In this document: piece after piece, positions 32,400-46,681 of the stretch
Numbering within the stretch: position 1 is the stretch's first letter
Layout of the letters: each line of letters opens with the position of its first letter
DNA from: Bacteroidales bacterium
Lineage (GTDB): Bacteria; Bacteroidota; Bacteroidia; Bacteroidales; UBA7960
Assembly: GCA_003552075.1 (NCBI GenBank)
Contig: PUOJ01000050.1
Span: forward strand, 1 to 52,298
Length of the DNA stretch: 52,298 nt
Reading direction: 5' to 3'
Made by a program: the position numbers and the translations under genes
Notes under the pieces: model-generated
What the model was told of the DNA's origin: nothing
The model's database searches: none
What the model saw: the letters and a program-made list of their open reading frames with translations, nothing else

Positions 32400-33668
32400 T
32401 TACTTTCTGGACACCTCAAAAAAGTCGCCAATGGCGAAAGTAACCGTTCTGCCGTCAGACTTGGTTTCGCCATCTACCACAACGGGTTGGCCCAGGAGGT
32501 TGTTGATGCTGCCGAACCCACGGCGGGCATACCGGCCCAGCAGAGATGCGTCTGTATGCAACAGCTCTTCCGCCTGGTCAATGGGCAGCCCTGTTCGTTC
32601 TGTAAGCTCGTTCCGGGCTAGCTGGGCCAGTGTAAGGTCTTGCCTGTCGGCCGTTCGGGGATCGTCAGCATGCTCTGCGAATAAGTCTGCGCGGTCGCGG
32701 TAAGCAAGCCAGTAATATTCCTGTCGTTTGCGGAGAGGTTCCTGTGGTCTTTGTGTTGCGCCAACGGGAGTCTGTGGCATCACACGATGCATCTGCGATG
32801 CCAGGAGTGGTCTTAGCGCGGGGGTTTCGTAGCCAGGGTCTGCATAAGCTGCAGGCACACCAGGGTCCGCTGACTGGCGGTCAACTTGCAGGGAGGTCAG
32901 CCGGCTTGATGTGGTAGCAAGGTGGATGCCCGGCCGGGAGCTGGCAGGCAGCTGATTTGGAGGAATGGGGGTCATCGCCCGGGCTGACCTCTGCAGCAGA
33001 CCGGGAGCTTCCGCAACGGCCTCCGTCAGCTCCCGGTCGATGCCAGCAGGGGTGTCTTGTGTAAACTCCGGCGTCGTGTGGTCAGGCATGAAGTGCCACA
33101 TGATCACCGCCATCAGCACGGCAGCCGCAGCAGCTGCTGCCGTGTGGCTGTAACGACGCACAAAAGCTCCGATGGGATGTCGCTTCAGAGCTTGCTTTCC
33201 GGGGCACGTCGCTGCCGGTTCGGGGCGCAGACGGGCTGCACGCAACAATTCAAGGTCCTTTTGATACGCCGGGTTGGCTGACAAAAAGGCACGGGCCGCC
33301 TCTTCCTGTTCCTTGTCCAGGTCTCCTTCAGTGAAAGCAATAAGCACCGTGTCCACGCGTGCGGGCCGCACGCGAAGAACACCCTGGTCGTCAGGGGCAA
33401 AAAGATCCTCCGAAAGGATGGCCACTTCCGTCTCCGCATGTGCAGGTCCATGGGCAGCCGCCCAAAGGTCCTTTTTCAGGCTGTCCTTTCCGGGAAACTC
33501 AACCTGGTCCGCACCCTCCAGGCCCACCATCTCAAAGGCCTCAAACTCTGCCCGCAGGTCAGGATGGCTTTCAAGGAACACCAAAAGCTCTCGCCTGCCT
33601 TCGTCTGAAAGCCTGCCCTCAAAATGGTCGAGGAAATAGAGCGGATAGTTTTCCCGGTTGATCTTCAT
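32400..33668 (-). CDS. Putative anti-sigma factor (membrane protein)
   Basis: N-terminal INRENY..FLDHFEGRLS repeated internally (IAFTEGDLD..FLSANP); one TM helix; directly downstream of an ECF sigma gene. Confidence 0.65.
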   Translation of the reverse strand: MKINRENYPLYFLDHFEGRLSDEGRRELLVFLESHPDLRAEFEAFEMVGLEGADQVEFPGKDSLKKDLWAAAHGPAHAETEVAILSEDLFAPDDQGVLRVRPARVDTVLIAFTEGDLDKEQEEAARAFLSANPAYQKDLELLRAARLRPEPAATCPGKQALKRHPIGAFVRRYSHTAAAAAAAVLMAVIMWHFMPDHTTPEFTQDTPAGIDRELTEAVAEAPGLLQRSARAMTPIPPNQLPASSRPGIHLATTSSRLTSLQVDRQSADPGVPAAYADPGYETPALRPLLASQMHRVMPQTPVGATQRPQEPLRKRQEYYWLAYRDRADLFAEHADDPRTADRQDLTLAQLARNELTERTGLPIDQAEELLHTDASLLGRYARRGFGSINNLLGQPVVVDGETKSDGRTVTFAIGDFFEVSRK

Positions 33669-33761
33669 TGTCTCTTTGATGGTTTCAGGCCGAAAGCCAG
33701 GCTTCATGTGCATGGTGCATCCATTTGCCAAGATGCCGGGGCCGGGGGCCTTGATTGATTG

Positions 33762-34247
33762 TCATATGACCACGTCCATGCTTCCAATGTACTTTTTTAA
33801 AAACAGGCGCGCCCGGTAAATGTACACCTTTACCTGCGACTCGCTCAGGCCAGTAATTTGACCGATCTCGTGGTAGGAATACCCTTCATAATCGCGCAAC
33901 ATGATCACTGCACGTTGATCGGAAGGCAGGCGCGAAAGCCCTTCTTCCAGTATTTCCCCAAGCCCGGAGTATTCCTGCTGGTATCCTTCTGTCTGCATAG
34001 GAACTTCATCGCACAGGTCTTCCTTTTTTCCCTTTCTCAGGCTGTCGATCATCGCGTGATAGGCCGTGCTGAACAGGTAAGCGCGGGCTTTATCCACATG
34101 GACTTCACGATGGCGAAGCCAGAGCCTTTCAAAGCTGTCCTGCACCACATCCTGTGCCCGGGCATCGTCGCGCAGGTTTTTCAGGATAAAGCGATACACG
34201 CCATCCGCATAGCGGTCTACACACTGATTGTATTCGGCCGTTGTCAT
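33762..34247 (-). CDS. ECF RNA polymerase sigma factor
   Basis: AQDVVQDSF (region 2) and LRDYEGYSYHEIG..SQVKVYIYRAR (region 4). Confidence 0.93.
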   Translation of the reverse strand: MTTAEYNQCVDRYADGVYRFILKNLRDDARAQDVVQDSFERLWLRHREVHVDKARAYLFSTAYHAMIDSLRKGKKEDLCDEVPMQTEGYQQEYSGLGEILEEGLSRLPSDQRAVIMLRDYEGYSYHEIGQITGLSESQVKVYIYRARLFLKKYIGSMDVVI

Positions 34248-34544
34248 GTGTTCCGGTTAGCTCCTGTTTATCTGCCGCTTGCCTCCATTTGTAGCGGCTT
34301 TTTCAAGTCAGCATCCAATGCTTTGTCGTTGGTGGTTGGTTCAGCTGCACGTTCAGCGCCTGTTTATCAGTCACTGCAGGCCAACTCAGATTTTCAGCAA
34401 GTTCCATTTCCCCTGTCTCTCCTCACCTGCCTTTGGGCTCCGTGGCTTCATTGCCGTTGATCGTGCCTTCTCAAATCCGGTGCAGGCCCCTTTTATCTCA
34501 CCTGGGCGTATCCTTGCTGGACATTCCACCTGCATGCAACAGTA

Positions 34545-34572
34545 AGACGTACTTCAAGTGAAAAAAGTTACA
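34545..34572 (-). promoter_or_regulatory. ECF-type promoter, likely autoregulatory
   Basis: Minus strand TGTAAC-N17-CGTCT upstream of the ECF sigma gene. Confidence 0.65.
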
Positions 34573-34815
34573 CCAAAGCAAAGGTACGGATTGTTTTTAT
34601 ATCTTATCCGCTTATAGCGTGCAACTTACAGGCAGCTGTGTGCGCAGCCAATTTGGGTGTTTGAGGCAATATGGGCTACAGTACCCTCCGAATGTTATTC
34701 TCCGTAAAGCAGGCCTTCCTGGTGGCACATTATCCCCAGGGGCTTTACGCAGGCTGCACATTCGTTCAGTAGCGTAAAGAAGCTTGATGCAACAGCGCCC
34801 TCTTCGTTTTTGTAG

Positions 34816-36123
34816 TTATTTTTTTACCCAAGGCTTGCTTATGGAGGAATTGCCGCTTGTCAGGCGCACGACATATGCACCTGCGGGCAGGTTGGAGATG
34901 TCTATGGCCATTGTCTTTCCAGGAATGTAGCTGCGCTTTTCACTTATCACCAGGTGGCCGGCGGCAGAAAGCAGGTCGACATGCACGTGCTTTCCCGTCT
35001 CATCCGGACTGATCTCTTTTATCCTTACGTGCAGCATCTTATCGGCAGGGTTGGGGTAGAGCTTTAGTTTGGCCGGCTGCTTTTCAGGAAGCAGGACACC
35101 GGTCTCATCGTCCACTTCAGCAACCAGCAGCTCGCCATCGACCACGTACCAGTAATGCCATTCTCCGCCTTCGCCTTCATCCCAGTTGTCGATATCAAAC
35201 CACCCGCTGCCCTCAAAGTCTCCTTTCACTTGGTATACCAGGATGGCTTCCCCGCCCTGCTCCCAGTGGAGAGGCTCTCCTGGCACGCAAGTTTCGGGGG
35301 GTCCCCCATGTTTTTGAAGGAAGTAGGCATAGTCATCATAGGATGGATGTCCGAACACCCGGGCCTGCCCGGCTTGATCAACCGCAATGGCGGTATATTC
35401 ATTGGCGGCGATCCCACGGGCATCCATTTGCCAGTCGGCGATCATCCTGGCCATGAAGCCCACATGCCGCCCATGGCGATCCATTCCGTCATCATGGATG
35501 CGGTTGTAGTGGCTGTCGGTTACCGTTTGCTCCATGAAGGGCACCTGCAGGAAGTCCTTTTCCAGCTTCACCCGCCAGTGGTAGGGATCCGAGAGTGCTT
35601 CCGAAGACCATACCGTGCCGTTTTCTGCGCCGAAAACCACCTCTCCGAGTACCGCCATCCCGGCGCTGGTGCCGCCAATGGTGATTTTTTTGTTGGTGAT
35701 CAGCTCGTTAAGCATGTCCAGCATCTCGCTGTCGCGCCATTCGTCCACATAGTGCCACTGGTTGCCACCGGCAATGAATACCACCTCCGCTTCCGCGAGA
35801 ATGTCGAGCACCTCCGGGCTTTCGGTGTCTTCCGGACCGGTGATCACGATAGACGTTACCGAGTTGACCTCCACGCCCAATCCGCTGTAGAAGTAGTTGT
35901 TGTATCCGTCCGAGCCGGAGGCCCGTAATACCACCACGTCGCCTCCATCTGCGCGCTGCAGCATCCAGGCCATGGCATCGTCGTTGTCGGTCTCACCGCC
36001 AGCCAGCACAAGCCCTGGCAGATGATCTGTGTCCACGGACTCCTCATTGCCCGTGTGATAGATCTCCTGTGTCCATCCGAAGAGCACTGTCAAAACCAAT
36101 AAAATCGTCAATAAAATTTTCAT
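34816..36123 (-). CDS. Secreted cyanophycinase-like serine peptidase (S51) with a T9SS type A C-terminal domain
   Basis: Signal peptide; FIAGGNQ, GGTSAG (Ser), TDSHY (His) and ANE (Glu); CTD LKLYPNPA..IDISNLPAGAYVVRL..KPWVKK. Confidence 0.8.
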   Translation of the reverse strand: MKILLTILLVLTVLFGWTQEIYHTGNEESVDTDHLPGLVLAGGETDNDDAMAWMLQRADGGDVVVLRASGSDGYNNYFYSGLGVEVNSVTSIVITGPEDTESPEVLDILAEAEVVFIAGGNQWHYVDEWRDSEMLDMLNELITNKKITIGGTSAGMAVLGEVVFGAENGTVWSSEALSDPYHWRVKLEKDFLQVPFMEQTVTDSHYNRIHDDGMDRHGRHVGFMARMIADWQMDARGIAANEYTAIAVDQAGQARVFGHPSYDDYAYFLQKHGGPPETCVPGEPLHWEQGGEAILVYQVKGDFEGSGWFDIDNWDEGEGGEWHYWYVVDGELLVAEVDDETGVLLPEKQPAKLKLYPNPADKMLHVRIKEISPDETGKHVHVDLLSAAGHLVISEKRSYIPGKTMAIDISNLPAGAYVVRLTSGNSSISKPWVKK

Positions 36124-36345
36124 ACGTCTCGTTTTTGTCAAAAACAGGGGGGCGTAATGCCTTAAAGCCTCATATCCAGGTGGCTTGGTAACACTCCGCC
36201 CCGACACGAACTTTCCAAAACACCTTCTTAGGGGTCAAAGCGCGAGCCTTTGCTAATCGTGCCGCCCCTCAATCTTCCAGGGCGGTCAGCACCTTCATCG
36301 CGTCCCGGGCCCTGGCTGAAGGCTAGCCTGTGTCATTCATGCAAC

Positions 36346-37959
36346 CTAAAACCCCGAAAGGTCCATTGTCACCGTCGGGATGAGCAGCAGGAAGCCCAGC
36401 AGGATCAGGATGGCGATGAGTGGGGTGACCCATTTGACCCATTTATGGTATGGGATGCGTGCAACGCCGAGCACGGCGATCAGCACGCCGGAGGTGGGGG
36501 TGATCATGTTGGTGAAGCCATCGCCAAACTGGAAGGCCATCACGGTGGCCTGCCGGGAGATGTCGATGAGGTCACTGAAGGGCGCCATGATGGGCATGGT
36601 GATGGCCGCTTTGGCTGAGCCGCTTGGGATTACTATGTTGACAATGGTCTGGATCACGTACATCACCCCGACGGAGGCCACGCTGCCAAACTGGCCGAGC
36701 GAACGACTCAGTCCGTAGAGGATGCTGTCGATGATGCCACCATCTTCGAGCACCACGATGATGCCCCCTGCGAGTCCGACGATGATGGCTGCCGACATGA
36801 TGTCCTTCACCCCGTCGAGGAAGGAGGTGGCGATGTCGTTGGCATCCTTTTGTACGGCAAGTCCTGCAGCGATCCCCATCCCCAGGAAGAGGGTGGCGAT
36901 CTCCATCACGTACCACTGGTATCCCATCACGCCCACGATAAGGAAAAGGATGGTGTAGGCCAGCAGGAGGAGGATAAAGAAGTGCACTGACTTGCGGAGG
37001 GTCCATATCCCGGCCAGGGCAAAGATCACGGTGGCCACGGGGATCACGGTGATGGTAGCCGATGAGGCGCCCACGGTCAGCGTGGACAGCGGGTACATCA
37101 CAGAAAAAATGGCGAGTACCAGCAAGACCGCCGCATATACGTACCAGGCCATCCTGGGCGTATAATAGGTGATGTTGTTCACGTCGCTGGCCTCTCGTTT
37201 TCGCCAGTAGCTGTCTTCTTCATACATGGTGGATCGCGTGGGGTCTTTTCGTATTCTGGACACATAGCGCAGCACAAAGGCAATGCCCACGATGTTGATC
37301 ACCACCCATGCAAAGAGGCGGTATTCGAGGCCTGAAAACAGGGGCAGGTCGGCCAGGCCCTGGGCGATTCCGATGGTGAAGGGGTTCAGGATGGCTCCGG
37401 CAAAGCCAAGATGGGCGCCGATGTATACCATGCAGACTCCCGTAATGCTGTCGTAGCCCATGGAGATCGCCAGCGGGATCAGGATGATCACGAAGGCGAT
37501 CGTCTCCTCGCTCATCCCGAAAATGGCACCAAAGGCACTGAAGAGCAGCATCACCATCACAATGATGATGTTGTCCACACCCAGCCGGCGCATGGTGGCA
37601 TTGCTTTCGAGTTTGCGTGCATAGCGCAGGAAGGACATGATTCCCACATCGATGGCCTTGGTCTGGTTCATGATCCAGAAGGCGCCGCCGATCATCAGGA
37701 TGAACACGATGATGTTGGACTGTCGTACAAAACCGTTGAAGAGCGCCGACAGCACCTGCCAGGTCTGCGGCTGGCTGTCGAGTGTGTGCCCCTCCGGAAG
37801 TTGGTCCTCGTAATAAAAGACCATGGTGCTTTGTTCTCTGCCGTCGATGACCACCGTCTCCTCAATGTATTTTCCCGGTGGGATGAACCAGGTGAGGACG
37901 GCTGCCAGGATGATGATGAAAAATACGATGACGTAGGTGTGGGGTATCTTCTTCAGCAT
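36346..37959 (-). CDS. YfcC-family inner-membrane transporter
   Basis: IPHTYVI, FGMSEETIAF, NPFTIGIAQG, PSGSAKA and FQFGDGFTNMITPTSG. Confidence 0.88.
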   Translation of the reverse strand: MLKKIPHTYVIVFFIIILAAVLTWFIPPGKYIEETVVIDGREQSTMVFYYEDQLPEGHTLDSQPQTWQVLSALFNGFVRQSNIIVFILMIGGAFWIMNQTKAIDVGIMSFLRYARKLESNATMRRLGVDNIIIVMVMLLFSAFGAIFGMSEETIAFVIILIPLAISMGYDSITGVCMVYIGAHLGFAGAILNPFTIGIAQGLADLPLFSGLEYRLFAWVVINIVGIAFVLRYVSRIRKDPTRSTMYEEDSYWRKREASDVNNITYYTPRMAWYVYAAVLLVLAIFSVMYPLSTLTVGASSATITVIPVATVIFALAGIWTLRKSVHFFILLLLAYTILFLIVGVMGYQWYVMEIATLFLGMGIAAGLAVQKDANDIATSFLDGVKDIMSAAIIVGLAGGIIVVLEDGGIIDSILYGLSRSLGQFGSVASVGVMYVIQTIVNIVIPSGSAKAAITMPIMAPFSDLIDISRQATVMAFQFGDGFTNMITPTSGVLIAVLGVARIPYHKWVKWVTPLIAILILLGFLLLIPTVTMDLSGF

Positions 37960-38011
37960 GGGTCAACGATTTAAGACTTGCTTGTACACGGGTTAAACGG
38001 GGTTGCAGTGT

Positions 38012-38077
38012 TGCTGTTGGCCATTGGCTGTTGGCTATTCGCTGTTAGCGATCGGTTATCGGCTGTTGGCTGATGGC
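38012..38077 (-). repeat. Heptamer array (plus strand GGCTRTT-like)x9 overlapping the cyanophycinase C-terminus
   Basis: tgctgtt ggccatt ggctgtt ggctatt cgctgtt agcgatc ggttatc ggctgtt ggctgat; it encodes AISQQPITDR and the stop. Confidence 0.75.
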
Positions 38078-38923
38078 AAAGCGTTCGCCGGGCAGGAATA
38101 TGTCGAGCTGCAGGTTTCGGCCGCCCAGTTTGTGTTCGTATTGGGTTTTGGAGGCGTCGGGGTTTCTGTACACCAGCACCTGGGCTATTCCTATCACTTC
38201 TGCCTCATTTCCGTTGACCAGGATGGCGGTGGATTCGTCGATGCCGATTCCGGGCAGCTCCGGGTGTTCCAGCACGGAGGTGATCAGGCGGTTGTGGCGG
38301 CTTCTCCACACGAAGTGCTGGTCGATCACGGCGGTGGTCAGCAGGCCGAGTCCTTCGGCCAGTTCAAGGTTTTCTGATTCGATCACCGGGAAGGTGGGCC
38401 GGTATTCGGGGTAGCGCAGTTCATCGCCGGTGATCATCTTTTCGCTCATCACGGCGGCGCCGGCACTGGTCCCGGCGATCACGGCGCCACCGGCGTAGGC
38501 TTCGTGGATCGCCTCCATCACCGGACCGTCGTACACGATGTCCATGAAGCGGTTCTGGTCGCCGCCACTGATGTAGATCAGCGGGGCTTGTCTGAGGGAG
38601 TCGACCCATTCCTGGCGTGGTTCCTCGTCCGGAAGAAAGTTAAAACCGGCTATGCGGCTGATTCCTTGTTCCAGGAACTGTTCGCTGGCCCATATGATGG
38701 CCGAGTCGGGCTCGGAGCTGGACATCGGCAGGATGGCCACATAGCCCTCATCCCAGATGCCGGCCTCATCAATCATCCGCTCCACCATCTCGGCCGGGCG
38801 GCTGCCGCCACCGATGATGAAAAGCGAGCCTTCCGGATGATGCGCTTCTGTCCGCTCTGCCGCGGGCTGGCAAGCCCACAGGGTGGCCAATACAATGGCT
38901 AATACAAGAATGTGTGTCTTCAT
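38045..38923 (-). CDS. cphB: Cyanophycinase (peptidase S51), lipoprotein
   Basis: Lipobox LWAC; LFIIGGG, SGGDQ, GTSAGA, IDQHFVWRSRHNRL and GIDESTA give the Ser-His-Glu triad plus the Arg-rich substrate motif. Confidence 0.9.
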   Translation of the reverse strand: MKTHILVLAIVLATLWACQPAAERTEAHHPEGSLFIIGGGSRPAEMVERMIDEAGIWDEGYVAILPMSSSEPDSAIIWASEQFLEQGISRIAGFNFLPDEEPRQEWVDSLRQAPLIYISGGDQNRFMDIVYDGPVMEAIHEAYAGGAVIAGTSAGAAVMSEKMITGDELRYPEYRPTFPVIESENLELAEGLGLLTTAVIDQHFVWRSRHNRLITSVLEHPELPGIGIDESTAILVNGNEAEVIGIAQVLVYRNPDASKTQYEHKLGGRNLQLDIFLPGERFAISQQPITDR

Positions 38924-39807
38924 TTGCTCCCGATAAAGAGGTGAATATCTGTCAGTACGATCGAATACAGGTCGGTGGAGTCGTGGTGGCGGAAGGCCAC
39001 GTGGATCTCTTCTCCTGCAAAGTCAGCGAGGTCAATGCTTCGAAGCTGCCACACCCAATTTTCCATTTCGGGGTCCAGCCGTTCGCTATAGATGGTTTCA
39101 AAGTCTTCCACATCGGTCCCGGTGGTTGACACCAGCACGCTGTACTTTTCCGTCCTGAACTCCGGTCCGGAGGCACGCGGGGTCACATAAAACTCAAGCA
39201 TTACCTCTTCCTGTTCGCTTAAGTCGATCTTTGGCGTGACGATCCAGTTGTCGGGCTCCAGTACTTCGCCTGTTGCTGCATCCCAGGAGTCGGACATGAT
39301 GTAATACTCTGTTTCGTCATCGCCCTCGAAGCTGTCCCAGTACCAGTTGCGGCCGTCGCCATTGAGGTCGATCAGCGTCCACCCTTCCGGCGGGAAGTCT
39401 TCCTCCAGTGCCGGGTCATCAAATCGTTCCCGGAAGAGTGTTGACACGAGGCTCAGTCGCTCCGTGGCCTCCAGCTTGTTGTAATGCAGCTCCCTTTCCG
39501 GCTCCACCCTCAGGGTCACTTCATACACGCCATCCTCTTCGTAAATTGCCACGGGGTGTTCCTCGTCAGAGGTGTTTCCATCGCCGAAGTCCCAGTGGTA
39601 GCCCACTGCATTCAGGGATTTGTTTTCAAAGGAGACCTCATAATAGATCTCCCCGGTCTCTGAGTCGGTCAGGACCTCAAACGCATAGTCAAATGCTGCC
39701 TGGGTGCTCGCTGCAGGCACCTCCATCTCATCCTCCGAGCAGGCCTGCAAGGCCACGATGAGTGCCGGAACGAGAAGCAGGCTCATTATTTTCAGCAAGG
39801 TTTTCAT
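38920..39807 (-). CDS. Surface lipoprotein with PKD and cleaved-adhesin (choice-of-anchor J-like) domains
   Basis: Lipobox LQAC then acidic SEDE; YHWDFGDG..YEVTL (PKD); WTLIDLNGDGRNW..PDNWIVTP..VAFRHHD; ATGA overlap with the next gene. Confidence 0.82.
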   Translation of the reverse strand: MKTLLKIMSLLLVPALIVALQACSEDEMEVPAASTQAAFDYAFEVLTDSETGEIYYEVSFENKSLNAVGYHWDFGDGNTSDEEHPVAIYEEDGVYEVTLRVEPERELHYNKLEATERLSLVSTLFRERFDDPALEEDFPPEGWTLIDLNGDGRNWYWDSFEGDDETEYYIMSDSWDAATGEVLEPDNWIVTPKIDLSEQEEVMLEFYVTPRASGPEFRTEKYSVLVSTTGTDVEDFETIYSERLDPEMENWVWQLRSIDLADFAGEEIHVAFRHHDSTDLYSIVLTDIHLFIGSK

Positions 39808-39914
39808 ATTGTGGTGTTGTTTTGTGAATATTTTCTAAAGGTGTGCATGTCAAACGGCAAAAGGTCTAAAAGGATGCTTTTGCTGCTGGCTTTTGGCCGT
39901 TTGTTCTTCGTTTT

Positions 39915-41258
39915 TTAGTAACAGTCGTTCTGGTACATCTCATCGTGGAAGTTGGTCAGCAGCTCACCCAGCGGGATGGGGAAGCGCGTATAACACTCCT
40001 CGTCAAGGCCGTCGAGCTCTTCCACTGCCCTGCCACTGCGCACAAGGTCAAACCAGCGGTGCCCTTCGAAGGCAAACTCTTTTTGCCTGGTTTCATGGAT
40101 GATGTCGAGCAGTTGTCCGGGGTCGGTGGTTTCAATGGGGTCCAGCCCGGCTCTTTCAAGCACCATGTTGACGTCGGCGCGTGCCTGGTCGAGTGATTCC
40201 CCGAGCAGGGCATAAGCTTCCGCACGGATGAGGTACATCTCTGCCAGTCGCATGACATAGACGTTGTCGGTTCCTGTTTCGATGTCATTGTATTTGATGG
40301 CATAATGGTTGTCTCCGTCGAGTGCGATGGAGAGGTCCCGGCGCACATCATGTTCAGCATACCTTTCGTAGAGCGTTTCGGTTGGCGAGAACTCCCTTCT
40401 TCCGCTCAGGGATGTCGGGAAGAAATACTCTGCCAGCCTGTTGCGGGCCTGCTCATAGAAGTCCACTTCGAAAATGCTTTCACTGTTGCCTCCATCGGCA
40501 AACAGGGTTTCGAAGGGCACCAGCTCCAGCCCGTAATCTTCGATGACGGCTGTAGCTTCGGCTGCAGCGGTGTTGAGTTGAACATCTTGCCCGGTGATGG
40601 CGTGTTCAAAGAGGCTGACCCTTGCTCTCAGTGCCTGTACGGCAGCCCTGGAGGCCAGGCCCTGTTCCACGCTGGTTCGCAGGTAGGCTTCAGCAAAGTC
40701 GAGGTCGTCGTGCACCTGCAGGTATACCTCGGCATAGGGCCTTCGTGGCACGTTGAGGTCGTCTTCATCTTCCGTGGCGGGCTCTGTGCGGATGGGCACG
40801 GGGCCAAACAAGCGCACCAGGTCGAAATGGGCCAGGGCGCGCAGGAACTTCAGCTCGGCGAGGTAGGCGTTGGCCTCCTCATCGCTTAGCTCATCCACCT
40901 GGGGAATTTTGGCGATGGTATGGTTTGCCCTGTTGATCATCCGATAGATGGCCGACCAGGTTCCTTCCACGATCACATTGTCGGCAAGGATGCTGTTGTT
41001 ATCCATCTGGTTATAGCCTGCCGTGGTCCCTGTCCAGGTCAGGTTGTCGGCCGACAGGTCGCCGGCCACGAGGAAGTTCCGGCCATAGTAGCCGGCTGCC
41101 TGCAGCGCAGAGTAAGTGCCGGTGATGGCACTTTCCACGTCGGCTCTGCTTTCAATGGCATCTTCGCCCGGAATGCTGTGATAGGGCTCCACGTCCAGCA
41201 CGTCGCATGCGGAGAGCACAAAAACCAGCATAATGGGCAGCAAAAATATTTTTTTCAT
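39915..41258 (-). CDS. susD: SusD/RagB family nutrient-binding lipoprotein
   Basis: Lipobox LSAC; ELKFLRALAHFDLVRLFG, RLAEMYLIRAEA and EFAFEGHRWFDL. Confidence 0.95.
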   Translation of the reverse strand: MKKIFLLPIMLVFVLSACDVLDVEPYHSIPGEDAIESRADVESAITGTYSALQAAGYYGRNFLVAGDLSADNLTWTGTTAGYNQMDNNSILADNVIVEGTWSAIYRMINRANHTIAKIPQVDELSDEEANAYLAELKFLRALAHFDLVRLFGPVPIRTEPATEDEDDLNVPRRPYAEVYLQVHDDLDFAEAYLRTSVEQGLASRAAVQALRARVSLFEHAITGQDVQLNTAAAEATAVIEDYGLELVPFETLFADGGNSESIFEVDFYEQARNRLAEYFFPTSLSGRREFSPTETLYERYAEHDVRRDLSIALDGDNHYAIKYNDIETGTDNVYVMRLAEMYLIRAEAYALLGESLDQARADVNMVLERAGLDPIETTDPGQLLDIIHETRQKEFAFEGHRWFDLVRSGRAVEELDGLDEECYTRFPIPLGELLTNFHDEMYQNDCY

Positions 41259-41374
41259 GATATGTCTTTGATTTACTTGTTTTTACAATGCGTCGGGTGC
41301 CTGTGCTTCCGGTTCATTGCCTTTGCTTTGTCGTTCAGGCAAAGGGCCCGGAGGCACCGCTTTTTCCTTTGGCT

Positions 41375-44314
41375 TTATATGTCGAGGCTGAGCCCGAGTG
41401 AAATGGTACGTACCTGCGGGTGGGTAAAGAAGTCGGTGCCCCTTCTGAGGTCATCGGCACCGGCATAGTTCACTTCCGGATCCATGCCGCTGTAGTTGGT
41501 AAAGGTGAGCAGGTTTTCGCCTGACACGAAGACCCGTGCACTCCTCATCCCCATCCTGGCCACCACGTCCGGGTCGAACCGGTAGGACAGCCGCAAGTTT
41601 TTCACCCGGAGGTAGGAGCCATCTTCAATGAAACGGCTGGATATCCTGTTGTTATTGTTCGGATCCAGCTCCGAAGCCCTGGGGACGTCGGTTTCGTCGC
41701 CAGGCTGCTGCCAGCGGTCAAGTACCGCAGTGGTCTGGTTGTCGCTGCCCTTCATGGACTCGATATAGATGCGGGTGCCATTGAAAATGTCGTTGCCATA
41801 AGAGAACTGCAGGAAGACACTCAGCTCGAAGTTCTGATACCTGAACCGGTTGGTAAGGCCTCCGGTGAAGTCTGGGTTAGGATCTCCAATTTTGGTCCGG
41901 TCTTCCGAGGTGACCTGTCCGTCGCCGGTGATGTCGGCAAATACGATGTCGCCGGTCGAGGGGTCCACGCCCAGGCTCTTGTATCCATAGAAGATCCCGA
42001 TGGGCTCTCCTTCTCGCACGCTGTTGCTTCCCCTGCCGAGGTTATCCAGGGGCTGGCCCTGGTACAGCTCGAGCACCTTGTTGCGGTTTCTGCTGATATT
42101 GAAGTCGGTAGACCAGGAGAACACCGTGTTGTCGATGTTGACGGTGCTCAGGGTGAGTTCGATGCCCCGGTTTTCCAGTTCGCCGATGTTGGAGGTGATG
42201 CTGCCATATCCTGTGGTATAGGATATGGGGCGGCTAAAGAGCAGGTCCTTGGTGTGGTTGTAGTAGTAGTCGACGCTCATTTCGATGCGGTCGTCATACA
42301 GGCCCACATCCACGCCTGCGTTGTACTGGTAGGTTGTTTCCCATTTGAGGTCTGGGTTGGCGATGCCACGTGGGAAGATCCCGGACTGCCCGAGGTAGTT
42401 TGCGCCTCCTCCGTAGAGTGAGAGGTAGGCAAAGTCGGGGATGCCGTCGTTACCGGTGATGCCATACCCGGCACGCCACCGCAGCTCGCTTATGGGGGTT
42501 CCCCAGGCGCGGAAGAAGTCTTCTTCTGACATGCGCCAGGCCACGGATGCGGCAGGGAAGAAGCCGTAACGGTTTTCATCCCAAAAGCGTGAAGAGCCGT
42601 CATAGCGTGCGGTAAAGGAGAGGATGTAGCGGTAGTCATAGTTATAGCGCAGCTGGCCAAAGAAGGAGTTCATCCCGCGGTCTGTAGCATTGGCGGAGGC
42701 TTCTGATATGGTGCCTGCCTCTGCCACATACTGAAAGTAGGCGTTGGGAAAGTCTACACCGCGGATGAAGGAGTTGCGGCGCTCAAACCGTTCAAACGAG
42801 TAGCCGCCAAGCACTTCCATGTTGTGCACTTCGTCGAAGGTGTTAAGGTAGCGCAGGGTATTGTTCGACACGATGTTGAGCACGTTGCTCAGACCTTCCA
42901 GGCCGATGCCGTTGGAGCGTGCGCCCTGGCGCGTGATGGCCGGGTCATAGCTGTGTTCGCGCAGGCTCAGGTAGTCAAAGCCCCAGGTGGTATTGAAGGT
43001 GAGGTTGTCGAGAATGCGGTAGTCGGCGAAGATGTTACCAATGGTCCTATAGTTATGTGCTTCATTGATGGCTTCCTTGCCGATGGCTACCGGGTTGGCG
43101 AAGGGGGCATCTTCGTTATACGTGCCATCTTCATTGTATACCGGATAGATGGAAGGGTTGGCGATGGCGTTGGCCAGCGGCGCATTTAGCGACTGGTCGC
43201 CTTCCACCCGGTTGTTCAGGGCATAGGACACCCCCACGTTCATCCCGATGTCGAGGCGTTCATTGACCGTGTGGTCAAGATTGAGCCGGCCGCTAAGCCG
43301 CTCGTATGAAGTGCCGATCAGCACCCCTTCCTGGTTCAGGTAGCTGCCCGACACATAAAACTGGGTTTGCTCCTCCCCGCCCCTGGCGGAGAGCTCGTAG
43401 TTCATCGTTGGGGCAGTCGACAGGACCTCGCTGAGCCAATCGGTGTCCACCATGGCTGCTGGATCACCGGGCTGTGTCCCTTTCAGTTCGTGCCATTGCT
43501 GCGCGTTGAGCATGTCCAGGCGATTTTCTATGTCTTGCATGCCGGTGGTGGCATTGAAGCTGATTTGCGTCTCTGCCTGGTCTCCTCGTTTGGTGGTGAT
43601 CAGGATAACGCCATTGGTGGCCCTTGCCCCGTATATGGCTGCCGCCGAGGCGTCTTTCAGGACGGTGACGGACTCGATGTCGTTGGGGTTGATGTCTGAC
43701 AGGGCGTCGATGCCTTGTCCGGAAAATCCAACCTGTCCGAAGTCACCGGTGGTCACCGGGATGCCGTCTACCACCACCAGCGGTTGGTTGCCGGCCGAGA
43801 TGGAGCTGCTTCCCCTGATCCGGATGGCGTTGGCGGCACCAGGGGTGCCGGAGCTCTGGGTGATCTGTAAGCCCGCCGAGCGCCCTTGCAGCACACCGTC
43901 GATGGTACGCATGTTTGACTCTTCCAGGTCTTCGGAGCTCACTACGCCGACAGATCCGGATATCAGGCGCCGGGACTCTGTGCCGTAGCCGGTGACGATC
44001 ACTTCGCCCAGCTCAGCCACATCGAGCTCCATCCCGACGTTAATCACGCTGCGGCCTTCGACCGGGATGGTTTCTGGACGCATGCCCACGAAGGTGAAGC
44101 GCAGGGTGTCTTCTGGCGAAACGGCGATCTCATAGCGTCCGTCGCCATCGGTGATGGTGCCACGGGTGGTTCCCTGCACCGTCACGGTAACCCCGGGAAG
44201 GGTAATATCGCCTTCGTCGACCGAGGTCACCACGCCGCTCACCGTCATGCGGTCGGCTTTCACCACAAGGGTGGCCATCAATAAGATGAGCATGGAAAGA
44301 AAGATGTTCTTCAT
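41375..44314 (-). CDS. susC: SusC/RagA family TonB-dependent transporter
   Basis: N-terminal extension domain, EVIVTGYG, IRIRG, LKDASAAAIYGARATNGVILITTKRG, NPDLKWE and YSGMDPE. Confidence 0.96.
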   Translation of the reverse strand: MKNIFLSMLILLMATLVVKADRMTVSGVVTSVDEGDITLPGVTVTVQGTTRGTITDGDGRYEIAVSPEDTLRFTFVGMRPETIPVEGRSVINVGMELDVAELGEVIVTGYGTESRRLISGSVGVVSSEDLEESNMRTIDGVLQGRSAGLQITQSSGTPGAANAIRIRGSSSISAGNQPLVVVDGIPVTTGDFGQVGFSGQGIDALSDINPNDIESVTVLKDASAAAIYGARATNGVILITTKRGDQAETQISFNATTGMQDIENRLDMLNAQQWHELKGTQPGDPAAMVDTDWLSEVLSTAPTMNYELSARGGEEQTQFYVSGSYLNQEGVLIGTSYERLSGRLNLDHTVNERLDIGMNVGVSYALNNRVEGDQSLNAPLANAIANPSIYPVYNEDGTYNEDAPFANPVAIGKEAINEAHNYRTIGNIFADYRILDNLTFNTTWGFDYLSLREHSYDPAITRQGARSNGIGLEGLSNVLNIVSNNTLRYLNTFDEVHNMEVLGGYSFERFERRNSFIRGVDFPNAYFQYVAEAGTISEASANATDRGMNSFFGQLRYNYDYRYILSFTARYDGSSRFWDENRYGFFPAASVAWRMSEEDFFRAWGTPISELRWRAGYGITGNDGIPDFAYLSLYGGGANYLGQSGIFPRGIANPDLKWETTYQYNAGVDVGLYDDRIEMSVDYYYNHTKDLLFSRPISYTTGYGSITSNIGELENRGIELTLSTVNIDNTVFSWSTDFNISRNRNKVLELYQGQPLDNLGRGSNSVREGEPIGIFYGYKSLGVDPSTGDIVFADITGDGQVTSEDRTKIGDPNPDFTGGLTNRFRYQNFELSVFLQFSYGNDIFNGTRIYIESMKGSDNQTTAVLDRWQQPGDETDVPRASELDPNNNNRISSRFIEDGSYLRVKNLRLSYRFDPDVVARMGMRSARVFVSGENLLTFTNYSGMDPEVNYAGADDLRRGTDFFTHPQVRTISLGLSLDI

Positions 44315-44398
44315 AGTGATTGCGTATTTGGTTTATTGATTATGATGTGATGTACACGGGTTAAAGGGCTACTGAGGGGTGCGGTTTGGTGTGTCTGG

Positions 44399-45556
44399 TT
44401 ATTCATACGTGCCTTTCCGCAACATTTTTCCGTCCTTCACCATCATCTTGCCCCTGGCACAGAGGTGAACGATGCGAAAGTCCTTGTCCACCAACAGGAG
44501 GTCGGCATCTTTTCCCGGGGCGACACGGCCTTTGCCTTGCAGCTTGAGGATGTCAGCCACGTTGGAGGTGACGGGCTGCAGTGCTTTTTCCAGGGGCAGG
44601 TCTTCTTCCAGGACACAATCCCGCAGCTCATCCATCATCGATTTCAGTCCGCCGGATTCCAGCCTCACCAGCTCTCCCTTTTCGTTGAACTGTGGCAGGG
44701 AGCCTGCGCCGTCGCTGCTCATCGTGACATGTGCCAGGGGCACGCCGGCTTTTAATAGTGCCACAATGCCTTTAGACGGTTTAATTTCCTCGTCAGGAAA
44801 GATGGGATATGCACTTGTGGTGAAGTCCACGTAGCCGTGTTTGCCGTATTCTTTGGCGTCTTCAAAAATATATTCATTGCGGTTACAGTGCGTTGGCAGA
44901 AACTGTGTCAGCTTGAGTTCACTGAAGTTGACGGCATCATAGAGCGGCTGAAATGGGTTTTCCGCATCGCCCATATGGATGTTTACGATGCCCGACTTGC
45001 CGCCCAGCATTGCGCCTACGCGCGAATGTGCGGCCAGCCGGATAAGCTCCGACACCGTGGGCGTCGAAGACCGGTGGTCCGACAAGGCGATCTCCCCGGT
45101 ACCGATCACCTCTTCGATCATGCTGATGTCTTTGCCGACATCTCCCAGGATGGTGGGAGTTGGCACCTGGTAGGCCCCAGTATACATATACGCACTGACG
45201 CCTTCTGCGCGCAGGCCTTTGGCTTTCATGAGCACGGAGCGCAGGTCGCGGGTGAGGCCGTCGGTGCCGAGGCAGCCCACAACGGTAGTCACGCCGGCTT
45301 CTAGCATCCTGCTTAAGGGCATCTCTGGCGTCCGGCTGGCCGGGCCACCCTCTCCGCCCGCGCCGGCGATGTGCACGTGTGAGTCGATGAGTCCGGGAAA
45401 CAGGCGGAGCCCCGTCCCGTCAATGACGTCCACATCCAGGTTTTCAGGTGGTGTAATCTTTTTGCCGACGGCCACGACCTGGGTGGCAGCCACCAGGACA
45501 TCCATTGGCCCGAGGTGATCCGGTGCATACACCTCGCAGTTGGTGAACAGTATCAT
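44399..45556 (-). CDS. iadA: Beta-aspartyl (isoaspartyl) dipeptidase, metallo type
   Basis: DSHVHIAGAGGEGG, GCLGTDG, GEIALSDHRSS, PTHCNR and SSDGAGSLP. Confidence 0.95.
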   Translation of the reverse strand: MILFTNCEVYAPDHLGPMDVLVAATQVVAVGKKITPPENLDVDVIDGTGLRLFPGLIDSHVHIAGAGGEGGPASRTPEMPLSRMLEAGVTTVVGCLGTDGLTRDLRSVLMKAKGLRAEGVSAYMYTGAYQVPTPTILGDVGKDISMIEEVIGTGEIALSDHRSSTPTVSELIRLAAHSRVGAMLGGKSGIVNIHMGDAENPFQPLYDAVNFSELKLTQFLPTHCNRNEYIFEDAKEYGKHGYVDFTTSAYPIFPDEEIKPSKGIVALLKAGVPLAHVTMSSDGAGSLPQFNEKGELVRLESGGLKSMMDELRDCVLEEDLPLEKALQPVTSNVADILKLQGKGRVAPGKDADLLLVDKDFRIVHLCARGKMMVKDGKMLRKGTYE

Positions 45557-45674
45557 TATGTGTGTATTTAAGGTCAGCACTAATAAAGTCGAAAAGCACT
45601 GGCTTGCCAGGCATGATGGGTTTTGGCAACCCCATGACAGTTATTGGCCTTCAGGCTCCTCATTGCAACAAAGA

Positions 45675-45682
45675 CAAATTTA
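45675..45682 (-). promoter_or_regulatory. TAnnTTTG promoter element for the iadA-susC operon
   Basis: Minus strand TAAATTTG in an AT-rich divergent region ~120 nt upstream of iadA. Confidence 0.5.
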
Positions 45683-45820
45683 GTAAGTTTTTTAAAATAT
45701 TTATTAATTCGGCTCTTATTTCTTTCGCGGTCATCAAATACACCTTTGCTGTATCCATTTTAAAAATATATTACCTTTACAGGTCGAAAATTGTGGCACA
45801 CAAATTAAAAATCGTGACCT

Positions 45821-46681
45821 ATGACGGATTTTACCAACACACCTGAGATTGCTGATGAGGACATCCGGCAACGTACGGAAACAATATTGCAGGATGCGCG
45901 TGAAACTTCCGATATGGGAAAGGTTTATCGTGAATTGCTTGGGGTGATCGACCTGACCACCCTGGAGGGCACCGACACGAAGAGGCGGGTGGAAGAGCTT
46001 TGCAACCAGGCGGTGTCATTTTCGGCTTTGCCTGATGGGTTGCCTGATGTGGCGGCGGTTTGTGTCTATCCGCCTTTTGTGGCGCAGGCCCGCAAGTTGT
46101 TGGAAAACACAGGCATCAGTGTGGCGTCCGTAGCCGGTGCCTTCCCTTCCGGTCAGTCGCCGCTTTTTGTAAAGATGGCGGAGGTACGGTATGCTGTGGA
46201 CGAGGGTGCACAGGAGATCGACATGGTCATCTCACGCGGGAAGTTCCTGGAGGGCGAATACAGTGAGGTTTTTGATGAGATCGCCGCCATCAGGGAAGCC
46301 TGTAAGGATGCGCACCTGAAGGTTATTTTGGAGACTGGGGAGTTGAAGACGGCCACCAACATTCGTCGTGCCAGCGAGATCGCCTTGGAGGCAGGGTGTC
46401 ATTTCCTCAAGACTTCCACGGGGAAGGTCAAGCCGGCGGCCACGCCGGAGGCCATGCTGGTGATGCTGGAGGCGATCCGCGACCACCACAAAAAAACCGG
46501 CCTGATGACCGGTATCAAGCCTGCCGGGGGCATTTCTGACCCCGAGACGGCCCTTGCTTATTATCGTCTCACCCGCGAGGTGCTTGGCTCCAAGCGGCTG
46601 AGCAAAAAGTGGTTCCGCATAGGAGCCAGCCGCCTGGCCGGCTCCCTGGTGGAGGCTATCCGCAATGCAAAAAACGCCTGA
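45821..46681 (+). CDS. deoC: Deoxyribose-phosphate aldolase
   Basis: IDLTTL, AAVCVYP, EIDMVI, LKVILETGEL, KTSTGK, KPAGGI and RIGAS. Confidence 0.95.
   Translation: MTDFTNTPEIADEDIRQRTETILQDARETSDMGKVYRELLGVIDLTTLEGTDTKRRVEELCNQAVSFSALPDGLPDVAAVCVYPPFVAQARKLLENTGISVASVAGAFPSGQSPLFVKMAEVRYAVDEGAQEIDMVISRGKFLEGEYSEVFDEIAAIREACKDAHLKVILETGELKTATNIRRASEIALEAGCHFLKTSTGKVKPAATPEAMLVMLEAIRDHHKKTGLMTGIKPAGGISDPETALAYYRLTREVLGSKRLSKKWFRIGASRLAGSLVEAIRNAKNA

Follow-up and report, generated by a model that had tools for sequence, protein, structure and literature searches.

The window analysed here is a stretch of 52,298 nucleotides (positions 1 to 52,298 of contig PUOJ01000050.1, assembly GCA_003552075.1) from a Bacteroidales bacterium. 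It carries a cluster of seven genes, all on the minus strand between 34816 and 45580, which are separated by intergenic gaps of 84-222 bases and one overlap of 4 bases (Table 1). The initial annotation covered only the two genes for peptidases of family S51, which were described as two cyanophycinase paralogues aimed at different compartments. Both open reading frames were recovered on the minus strand with all the motifs quoted for them (GGDQ and DQHFxxRxRxxRL in one, GGNQ and DSHY in the other), and the two-gene span was seen to omit five further genes of the same system, up to 45580. The cluster most likely serves this uncultured salt- or soda-lake bacterium for the harvesting of cyanophycin, the nitrogen-storage polymer of other bacteria.

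Table 1. Genes of the cluster and domains of the divergent S51 enzyme, with their positions in the window and the matches that identify them (T9SS, type IX secretion system)
Feature	Position	Strand	Evidence
Isoaspartyl (beta-aspartyl) dipeptidase IadA	44399..45580	-	TIGR01975 476.8 bits (cut-off 331.25)
SusC/RagA-type TonB-dependent outer-membrane transporter	41375..44314	-	TIGR04056 874.5 bits
SusD-family surface lipoprotein	39915..41258	-	PF07980 87.4 bits, PF14322 86.5 bits
PKD + Cleaved_Adhesin/choice-of-anchor-J lipoprotein	38920..39807	-	PF07675 88.5 bits, PF18911 46.7 bits, NF038128 87.3 bits
Canonical cyanophycinase (S51, 292 amino acids)	38045..38923	-	TIGR02069 151.2 bits (cut-off 126.6)
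YfcC/DcuC-family inner-membrane permease	36346..37959	-	PF03606 347.1 bits; NF008611 (YfcC) 368.7 bits, below the cut-off of 500
Divergent S51 peptidase with T9SS type-A C-terminal domain (435 amino acids)	34816..36123	-	PF03575 37.2 bits, TIGR02069 45.3 bits (below cut-off), PF18962 41.3 bits
Divergent enzyme, leader (residues 1-20)	36064..36123	-	hydrophobic N-terminus
Divergent enzyme, catalytic domain (about residues 21-336)	35116..36063	-	cyanophycinase fold
Divergent enzyme, T9SS type-A C-terminal domain (residues 355-435)	34819..35061	-	PF18962 41.3 bits (cut-off 27), TIGR04183 38 bits (cut-off 23)

In a cyanophycin utilization locus, as PMC10206079 describes it, one or more cyanophycinase genes lie together with those of an isoaspartyl dipeptidase and a transporter, and the genome has no cphA1. 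The same combination was found here, as the cyanophycinase genes, the isoaspartyl dipeptidase gene and a transporter gene lie together and cphA was not found in the 86.5% complete host genome. The susC and susD genes are adjacent on one strand with a gap of 116 bases and have degradative enzymes alongside, which is the arrangement of a SusC/SusD utilization locus, and the start of the canonical cyanophycinase gene overlaps the stop of the upstream PKD lipoprotein gene by 4 bases. The PKD/anchor-J lipoprotein, by analogy of its place with that of the SusE/F-type binders, may be a surface substrate-binding protein. The YfcC-type permease is a predicted importer of beta-Asp-Arg, and IadA, which is predicted to be cytoplasmic, would perform the last step from beta-Asp-Arg to Asp and Arg.

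The canonical cyanophycinase passes the whole-protein equivalog threshold of TIGR02069 and carries the motifs GGDQ, GTSAG, DQHFVWRSRHNRL and GIGIDEST. Its residues Q123, S153, D201, Q202, H203, R207, R209, R212 and E230 are invariant in an alignment of seven orthologues (that of the window and six others). The essential residues of CphB are Gln101, Asp172, Gln173, Arg178, Arg180 and Arg183 (PMC3235067 in its available part, citing Law et al. 2009). The canonical enzyme has the same Ser-His-Glu triad and all six of these pocket residues as CphB of Synechocystis PCC 6803 (3EN0, 7UQW), and they align to 3en0 and 7uqv. The best sequence matches in the PDB were 7uqv_A (4.8e-26) and then 3en0_A, which is CphB (8.6e-22). 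By family score and motifs this gene is taken as that of a canonical cyanophycinase, with predicted hydrolysis to beta-Asp-Arg.

The divergent enzyme has 435 amino acids when read from its ATG; an alternative GTG start is present at 36207 in the stop-to-stop frame, and the homologues align from the ATG. The motifs GGNQ, GTSAG, DSHY and NRIHDDGMDRHGRH were identified in it, and its hydrophobic Sec leader, read by eye, is MKILLTILLVLTVLFGWT followed by QE. The AlphaFold model, built on 29 relatives, had a mean predicted local distance difference test score of 89.9. Comparison of a predicted structure with CphB had been suggested in the initial annotation, and on being carried out it showed that the enzyme keeps the fold: residues 34-319 superpose on CphB (3en0_B) with Z 27.5 and rmsd (root-mean-square deviation) 2.4 over 251 of 265 residues. 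The solved folds nearest to the model were those of cyanophycinases (Z 27.5 for 3en0_B, 27.4 for 7uqw_A, and 26.7), 7UQV being among the structures that superpose on it, and peptidase E entries gave Z 14-18. Residues 351-435 of the model match solved T9SS C-terminal domains (Z 12.2 and 11.3). An "extra Trp-rich segment" had also been described for this protein; most of it is not extra and belongs to the C-terminal sheet of the cyanophycinase fold, since it falls in the part (residues 34-319) that superposes on CphB, and what lies outside this fold is limited to a beta-hairpin at about 320-336 and a linker modelled with low confidence at 339-350.

The CphB pocket was mapped onto the divergent enzyme by two independent alignments that agree with each other, namely a HMMER profile alignment to 7UQV and an hhalign profile-profile alignment to the canonical clade (probability 98.5%, 233 columns). 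The triad S153, H205 and E242 is invariant in the alignment of 29 sequences. Gln101, Asp172, Arg180 and Arg183 of CphB correspond to Q122, D203, R216 and R219, all invariant across the clade. Gln173 corresponds to S204, which is Ser or Thr across the clade, and Arg178 falls on M214, a variable position without a conserved counterpart, so that four of the six pocket residues are kept and the full six-residue pocket is not present. The spacing from Ser to His is 52 residues as against 42 in CphB. The insertion noted in the initial annotation is real and consists of five residues between the His and R216, which are missing from the canonical clade and from the shorter members of its own clade. 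In comparison with CphB, the divergent enzyme therefore shares the fold, the triad and these four pocket residues, and it adds the five-residue insertion after the His, the hairpin and the T9SS domain.

The secreted cyanophycinase CphE (Pseudomonas anguilliseptica / P. alcaligenes) offers a second comparison, made by published residue numbers only and from the available part of PMC3235067. CphE likewise leaves by the Sec route and is larger than CphB (43.6 kDa mature); its Thr223 replaces CphB Gln173 and is a hydroxyl residue like Ser204 of the divergent enzyme, and its Ser-to-His spacing is 53 (Ser171, His224), close to the 52 seen here. Unlike the divergent enzyme, it keeps all three arginines (R228, R230 and R233) and is without a T9SS domain. 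On the basis of fold, triad and pocket mapping, the divergent enzyme can almost certainly be taken as an active, cyanophycinase-type serine peptidase in which one contact to the substrate is altered. As a lead only, the nearest ESM Atlas clusters bear the name "putative Cyanophycinase", with scores of 0.95-0.96 and members from Cyanobacteriota and Bacteroidota.

The placement of the two enzymes was studied from their N- and C-termini. CphB is cytoplasmic, and both S51 proteins of the locus carry export signals. For the divergent enzyme a Sec signal and a T9SS C-terminal domain had been claimed, and both were borne out by the hydrophobic leader, by PF18962 (41.3 bits) and TIGR04183 (38 bits) and by a C-terminal fold with Z 11-12. 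The host genome encodes the T9SS machinery (SprA 2617.5 bits, GldM 271.5 bits) and the type-A sorting domain is matched 41 times in it, with 38 of these matches above the cut-off. The protein thus shows the features of a T9SS cargo, and its export by this system is well founded because SprA, GldM and the 38 over-cut-off sorting domains are present in the same genome. Among the best 120 database relatives of the divergent enzyme, 109 carry PF18962. The members of the clade without a T9SS domain that were fetched from the sampled genomes all have a lipobox (9 of 9), which is followed in several of them by S-E-N-D, S-S-E or S-G-D. It appears from these termini that the outer enzyme is always exported or tethered by one of two routes, the T9SS domain or the lipobox. 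In three close relatives (P0043, P0050 and P0053; 66% identity over 73-78% of the query) a dockerin domain PF00404 replaces the T9SS domain, which would be a third route to placement outside.

The acidic patch that follows the Cys of a lipoprotein is reportedly a surface-export signal in Bacteroidota (Lauber et al. 2016). The N-terminus of the canonical cyanophycinase is MKTHILVLAIVLATLWAC followed by QPAAERTE; as had been observed before, it has a lipobox without an acidic patch, the lipobox LWAC is atypical in having Trp at -2, and only one acidic residue (Glu at +5) occurs at +1..+5. The surface-lipoprotein signature of a lipobox followed by an acidic patch within about five residues is therefore absent from this enzyme. 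The PKD/anchor-J lipoprotein has three acidic residues in the same interval, in the patch SEDEMEV that follows its Cys. In the SusD lipoprotein the Cys is followed by DVLDVEP, and its orthologues in the loci L016, L027, L032, L034 and L037 begin with Cys and DVL[DE]VEP. All five SusD-like lipoproteins encoded directly after SusC-like genes in the host genome have two to three acidic residues at +1..+5. The lipoprotein scan of the genome used a crude pattern, which gave evident false positives and missed two lipoproteins of the locus (LWAC among them); it served for these SusD controls and for a rough background only. The acidic-patch count speaks, as a weak negative, against surface export of the canonical enzyme.

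The N-termini of twelve canonical partners (that of the window and eleven from other genomes) were read by eye. In eight of the twelve there is no Cys and the leader ends in Ala or Ser followed by Gln, which is read as a signal-peptidase-I site after the "Q-rule" of Bacteroidota. The other four have a lipobox followed by non-acidic residues, the Cys being followed in the three besides that of the window by NAPKK, DQTKK and QSKLN, and a T9SS domain is present in none of the twelve. The inner enzyme thus appears to be usually a soluble periplasmic protein whose lipidation is incidental, and periplasmic residence rather than lipid anchoring is its conserved trait, because eight of the twelve partners carry the signal-peptidase-I-type site without a lipobox. 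The compartment split that was proposed at the outset is accordingly supported and refined: the divergent enzyme is predicted to be exported by the T9SS and the canonical enzyme to be kept in the periplasm, as the twelve partners indicate, in most cases without a lipid anchor.

The recurrence of this pairing was surveyed in other genomes. At least 600 stretches were matched by a degenerate-pattern scan over one genome per species, and at least 513 of them code for relatives of the divergent enzyme. The best 80 were taken further, and 78 of these are labelled as Bacteroidota lineages. Among these best 80 loci, a second S51 gene is present within 10 kb in nine, five to six of which also have SusC/SusD; SusC is nearby in six, SusD in five and YfcC in three. 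On a maximum-likelihood tree of 81 proteins the label "second S51 nearby" needs at least six changes, and the loci that bear it fall in Bacteroidales, Tenuifilaceae, Saprospiraceae, Flavobacteriaceae and two unplaced lineages. A YfcC-type permease lies between or beside both S51 genes in L004, L006 and L093, and a fragment of one in L064.

The survey was extended to 300 genomes sampled evenly across the phylum, with the divergent clade called at 150 bits or more. The clade occurs in 14 of the 300, and a cyanophycinase over the TIGR02069 cut-off accompanies it in 9 of these 14 genomes as against 55 of the 286 without the clade, a comparison among related genomes which is not an independent test. 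In five of the 14 (two genera) the divergent and canonical genes lie 0.2-1.5 kb apart; SusC/SusD adjoin in all five, and in one of them YfcC stands between both S51 genes as in the window. Only 5 of the 300 genomes had an IadA over the cut-off, and four of these also have a canonical cyanophycinase. The divergent enzyme carries the anchor-J/Cleaved_Adhesin domain as an N-terminal fusion in L014 (by Pfam), in L020 (by tblastn only) and in the database protein P0119 (by precomputed Pfam). L014 and L020 are Bacteroidales genomes, and the window keeps anchor-J as a separate lipoprotein. This fusion ties the PKD/anchor-J lipoprotein to the task of the outer enzyme.

Variants of the arrangement were observed as well. 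In the Flavobacteriaceae loci (L016:8584-9897 and L034:7855-9156) an M20 peptidase is placed between both S51 genes, where the window has the permease; IadA was not seen within the fetched flanks of L016 and L034, and the M20 peptidase may be the dipeptidase of these loci. Their post-SusD lipoproteins (L016:5210-7697 and L034:12278-14760) are of PKD + DUF5050 type (propeller-like) and not PKD + anchor-J, so the surface binders vary between versions of the locus. The nearest relative locus (L004:371-3678) has a permease 96% identical to that of the window and a T9SS enzyme 70% identical, and by this comparison the exported enzyme appears to evolve much faster than the neighbouring permease. A gene for protein-L-isoaspartate O-methyltransferase occurs in the neighbourhood of the divergent S51 gene in 15 of the best 80 loci; the copy at L019:9422-9943 (NF001453, 189.9 bits) stands immediately upstream in the same orientation. 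Simple synteny inside a single family could account for this, or it could point to an isoaspartyl theme. A third S51 class with open frames of 661-707 amino acids (78-108 bits) was found 0.2-11 kb from the canonical cyanophycinase in G020, G177, G145, G272, G131, G010 and G173, and in G131 it also adjoins IadA.

Some features around the cluster complete the description. The host genome is a 2.39-Mb assembly of 198 contigs. Its third S51 gene (G000:C187:14750-15361, L001) is an ordinary dipeptidase PepE (NF003642 301.6 bits, cut-off 156) and has no link with the locus. Plug, barrel and CarboxypepD_reg domains were found in the SusC protein by the Pfam/NCBIfam search, in which an STN domain was not listed. 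Downstream of the cluster and on the same strand lie an ECF (extracytoplasmic function) sigma factor (33762-34247) and a 443-residue protein without a Pfam/NCBIfam match (32400-33731). These two were considered as regulators of the locus; they are not counted as its parts, because the SusC is without an STN domain, and the link is doubtful. Near-identical DNA was found in sequencing runs labelled as salt lake, lake water, soda lake and freshwater sediment metagenomes (15 DNA rows, 6 of them with at least half of the window's words), and no RNA run was listed among the public runs matching the window.

The cyanophycin locus was reportedly described by Ben Hania and colleagues in 2017 as homologous to polysaccharide utilization loci. 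The starch utilization system and other SusC/SusD loci of that kind share the plan of the cluster: besides the SusC/SusD pair they have a surface-binding lipoprotein encoded immediately after susD, one enzyme outside and one in the periplasm, and a permease in the inner membrane. The cluster differs from the starch system in its substrate, a polyamide, in its enzymes, which are S51 serine peptidases, and in having T9SS cargo rather than a lipoprotein as the outer enzyme; a hybrid two-component or STN-linked regulator is not visible in the cluster. A SusC/SusD-type importer of peptides is known in RagAB of Porphyromonas gingivalis. The locus type itself is credited to Ben Hania et al. 2017 in PMC10206079 (sections 6 and 8, in the available text). 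The locus of Salinivirga cyanobacteriivorans L21-Spi-D4, as far as it is described in the available parts of PMC10206079 and PMC6243061, likewise has two structurally different S51 proteins, one of them with a Por (T9SS) secretion domain (PMC6243061, section 18; 2018).

Both S51 genes of the window probably encode the hydrolases, one outer and one inner, of a cyanophycin utilization locus of Bacteroidota that follows the SusC/SusD plan. The divergent enzyme would cross the inner membrane through Sec and then the outer one through the T9SS, and outside it would attack cyanophycin set free by the lysis of producers. At the cell surface the substrate would be held by SusD and the acidic-patch PKD/anchor-J lipoprotein, and soluble fragments would be imported by SusC. 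In the periplasm the retained canonical cyanophycinase would cut the imported fragments to beta-Asp-Arg, which the YfcC-type permease would move into the cytoplasm, where IadA would split it into Asp and Arg. We infer this enzymatic chain from the SusC/SusD paradigm. For the division of products that was proposed along with the compartments, with oligomers made outside and dipeptides inside, the one argument is logical: a conserved periplasmic cyanophycinase would serve no purpose if nothing longer than a single dipeptide arrived in the periplasm through SusCD. Taken further, the T9SS- or lipid-anchored S51 clade may be a distinct cyanophycin depolymerase, whose altered pocket (no Arg178 equivalent, a longer Ser-to-His loop and the extra hairpin) would release oligomers and not dipeptides from insoluble granules and so feed a "selfish" SusCD import of polyamide, with anchor-J as a cyanophycin-binding module; this extension is tentative and we regard it as rather doubtful.

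Several points weigh against the cyanophycin locus reading and have to be set beside it. The failure to find a cyanophycin synthetase (best TIGR02068 match 92.7 bits, cut-off 850) counts in favour of the reading, with the reservation that cphA may be unassembled in a host genome that is 86.5% complete. A scan of 34000-46000 gave 4 promoter-like and 6 terminator-like sites, fewer than in shuffled sequences (6.5 and 11.4), with a consensus unsuited to Bacteroidota, so it is uninformative on operon structure. The top PDB match of the canonical enzyme, 7UQV, bears the title "pseudo-CphB" although its alignment shows GTSAG, DQHF..RGRFGR and IDEDT, and motifs alone may hence not guarantee cyanophycinase activity. 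For the inner enzyme the atypical LWAC lipobox has to be counted, as well as the statistical nature of the acidic-patch rule, since 58 of the 87 crude lipoprotein candidates have zero to one acidic residue and 29 have two to four. An assay of any member of the divergent clade was not found in the literature searched, where the 2017 locus paper is known only through papers citing it.

It is also conceivable that the compartments are as proposed and the products are not divided by size, the exported enzyme being a CphE-like exopeptidase that releases beta-Asp-Arg outside, while SusCD and the periplasmic enzyme handle short leftovers or act as a high-affinity back-up. The characterised cyanophycinases, extracellular CphE included, are reported as exo-acting producers of dipeptides (PMC10206079 and PMC9974463, in their available parts), which counts against an endo-acting outer enzyme. 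The divergent clade also retains the triad and most of the pocket (Q122, D203, R216 and R219), and because the conserved Asp of the S51 pocket is among these residues the outer enzyme could equally release dipeptides. A self-sufficient secreted enzyme would further be expected to stand by itself, and of the 31 loci (among the best 80) that are flanked by 8 kb or more on each side, 25 are without SusCD or a second S51 gene alongside, only six of the 31 having the latter; the neighbours in those 25 are housekeeping genes in shared synteny. The recurrence of a periplasmic cyanophycinase and SusC/SusD alongside at six or more places on the family tree is, however, hard to explain if only dipeptides enter, and the loss of the Arg178 position means that the substrate is not contacted exactly as in CphB or CphE. 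We hold this explanation to be unlikely.

Less likely still is that the T9SS-linked S51 clade is not a cyanophycinase at all and is a secreted peptidase for some other aspartate-containing substrate, serving here as a general accessory of nitrogen scavenging. The divergent enzyme does score below the TIGR02069 cut-off, its counterpart of Arg178, a residue which is critical according to the available part of PMC3235067, is not conserved, most loci have no cyanophycin gene nearby, and five of the 14 clade-bearing sampled genomes are without a cyanophycinase over the cut-off; the "pseudo-CphB" title of a solved homologue with all the canonical motifs points the same way. Against this, the nearest solved folds are those of cyanophycinases, well above peptidase E, the clade is enriched in genomes with a canonical cyanophycinase (subject to the relatedness noted above), and the divergent gene repeatedly adjoins the canonical enzyme, SusCD, YfcC or a dipeptidase. 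That both enzymes act outside, with the lipoprotein cyanophycinase flipped to the surface despite its weak acidic patch and none left in the periplasm, is very improbable. The lipobox-like LWAC with Glu at +5 speaks for it, as does the locus's own SusD, which has no more than two acidic residues and is presumably exposed at the surface; the eight orthologous partners with a signal-peptidase-I-type site in place of the Cys, the lack of a T9SS domain in all twelve and the absence of an acidic patch from the other three lipobox forms argue against it.

The kind of locus is not new, because the type is credited to 2017 and the pair of a plain and a Por-domain S51 protein was noted in 2018, as the available parts of PMC10206079 and PMC6243061 state. 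Possibly new details, as judged from the sequences, are the changed Arg178 position in the outer enzyme, its two alternative routes of surface targeting, the mostly soluble inner enzyme and the fusion of anchor-J to the outer enzyme. Experimental tests of the SusCD-based cyanophycin loci, which were predicted in 2017, were not found in the literature searched. Cyanophycin is a widespread store of nitrogen and carbon whose recycling after lysis of the producer is poorly known. The present locus is a further clean case, found in a bacterium of a salt or soda lake. If the outer enzyme is endo-acting, it would represent a new activity within family S51 and would be useful for making defined cyanophycin oligomers.

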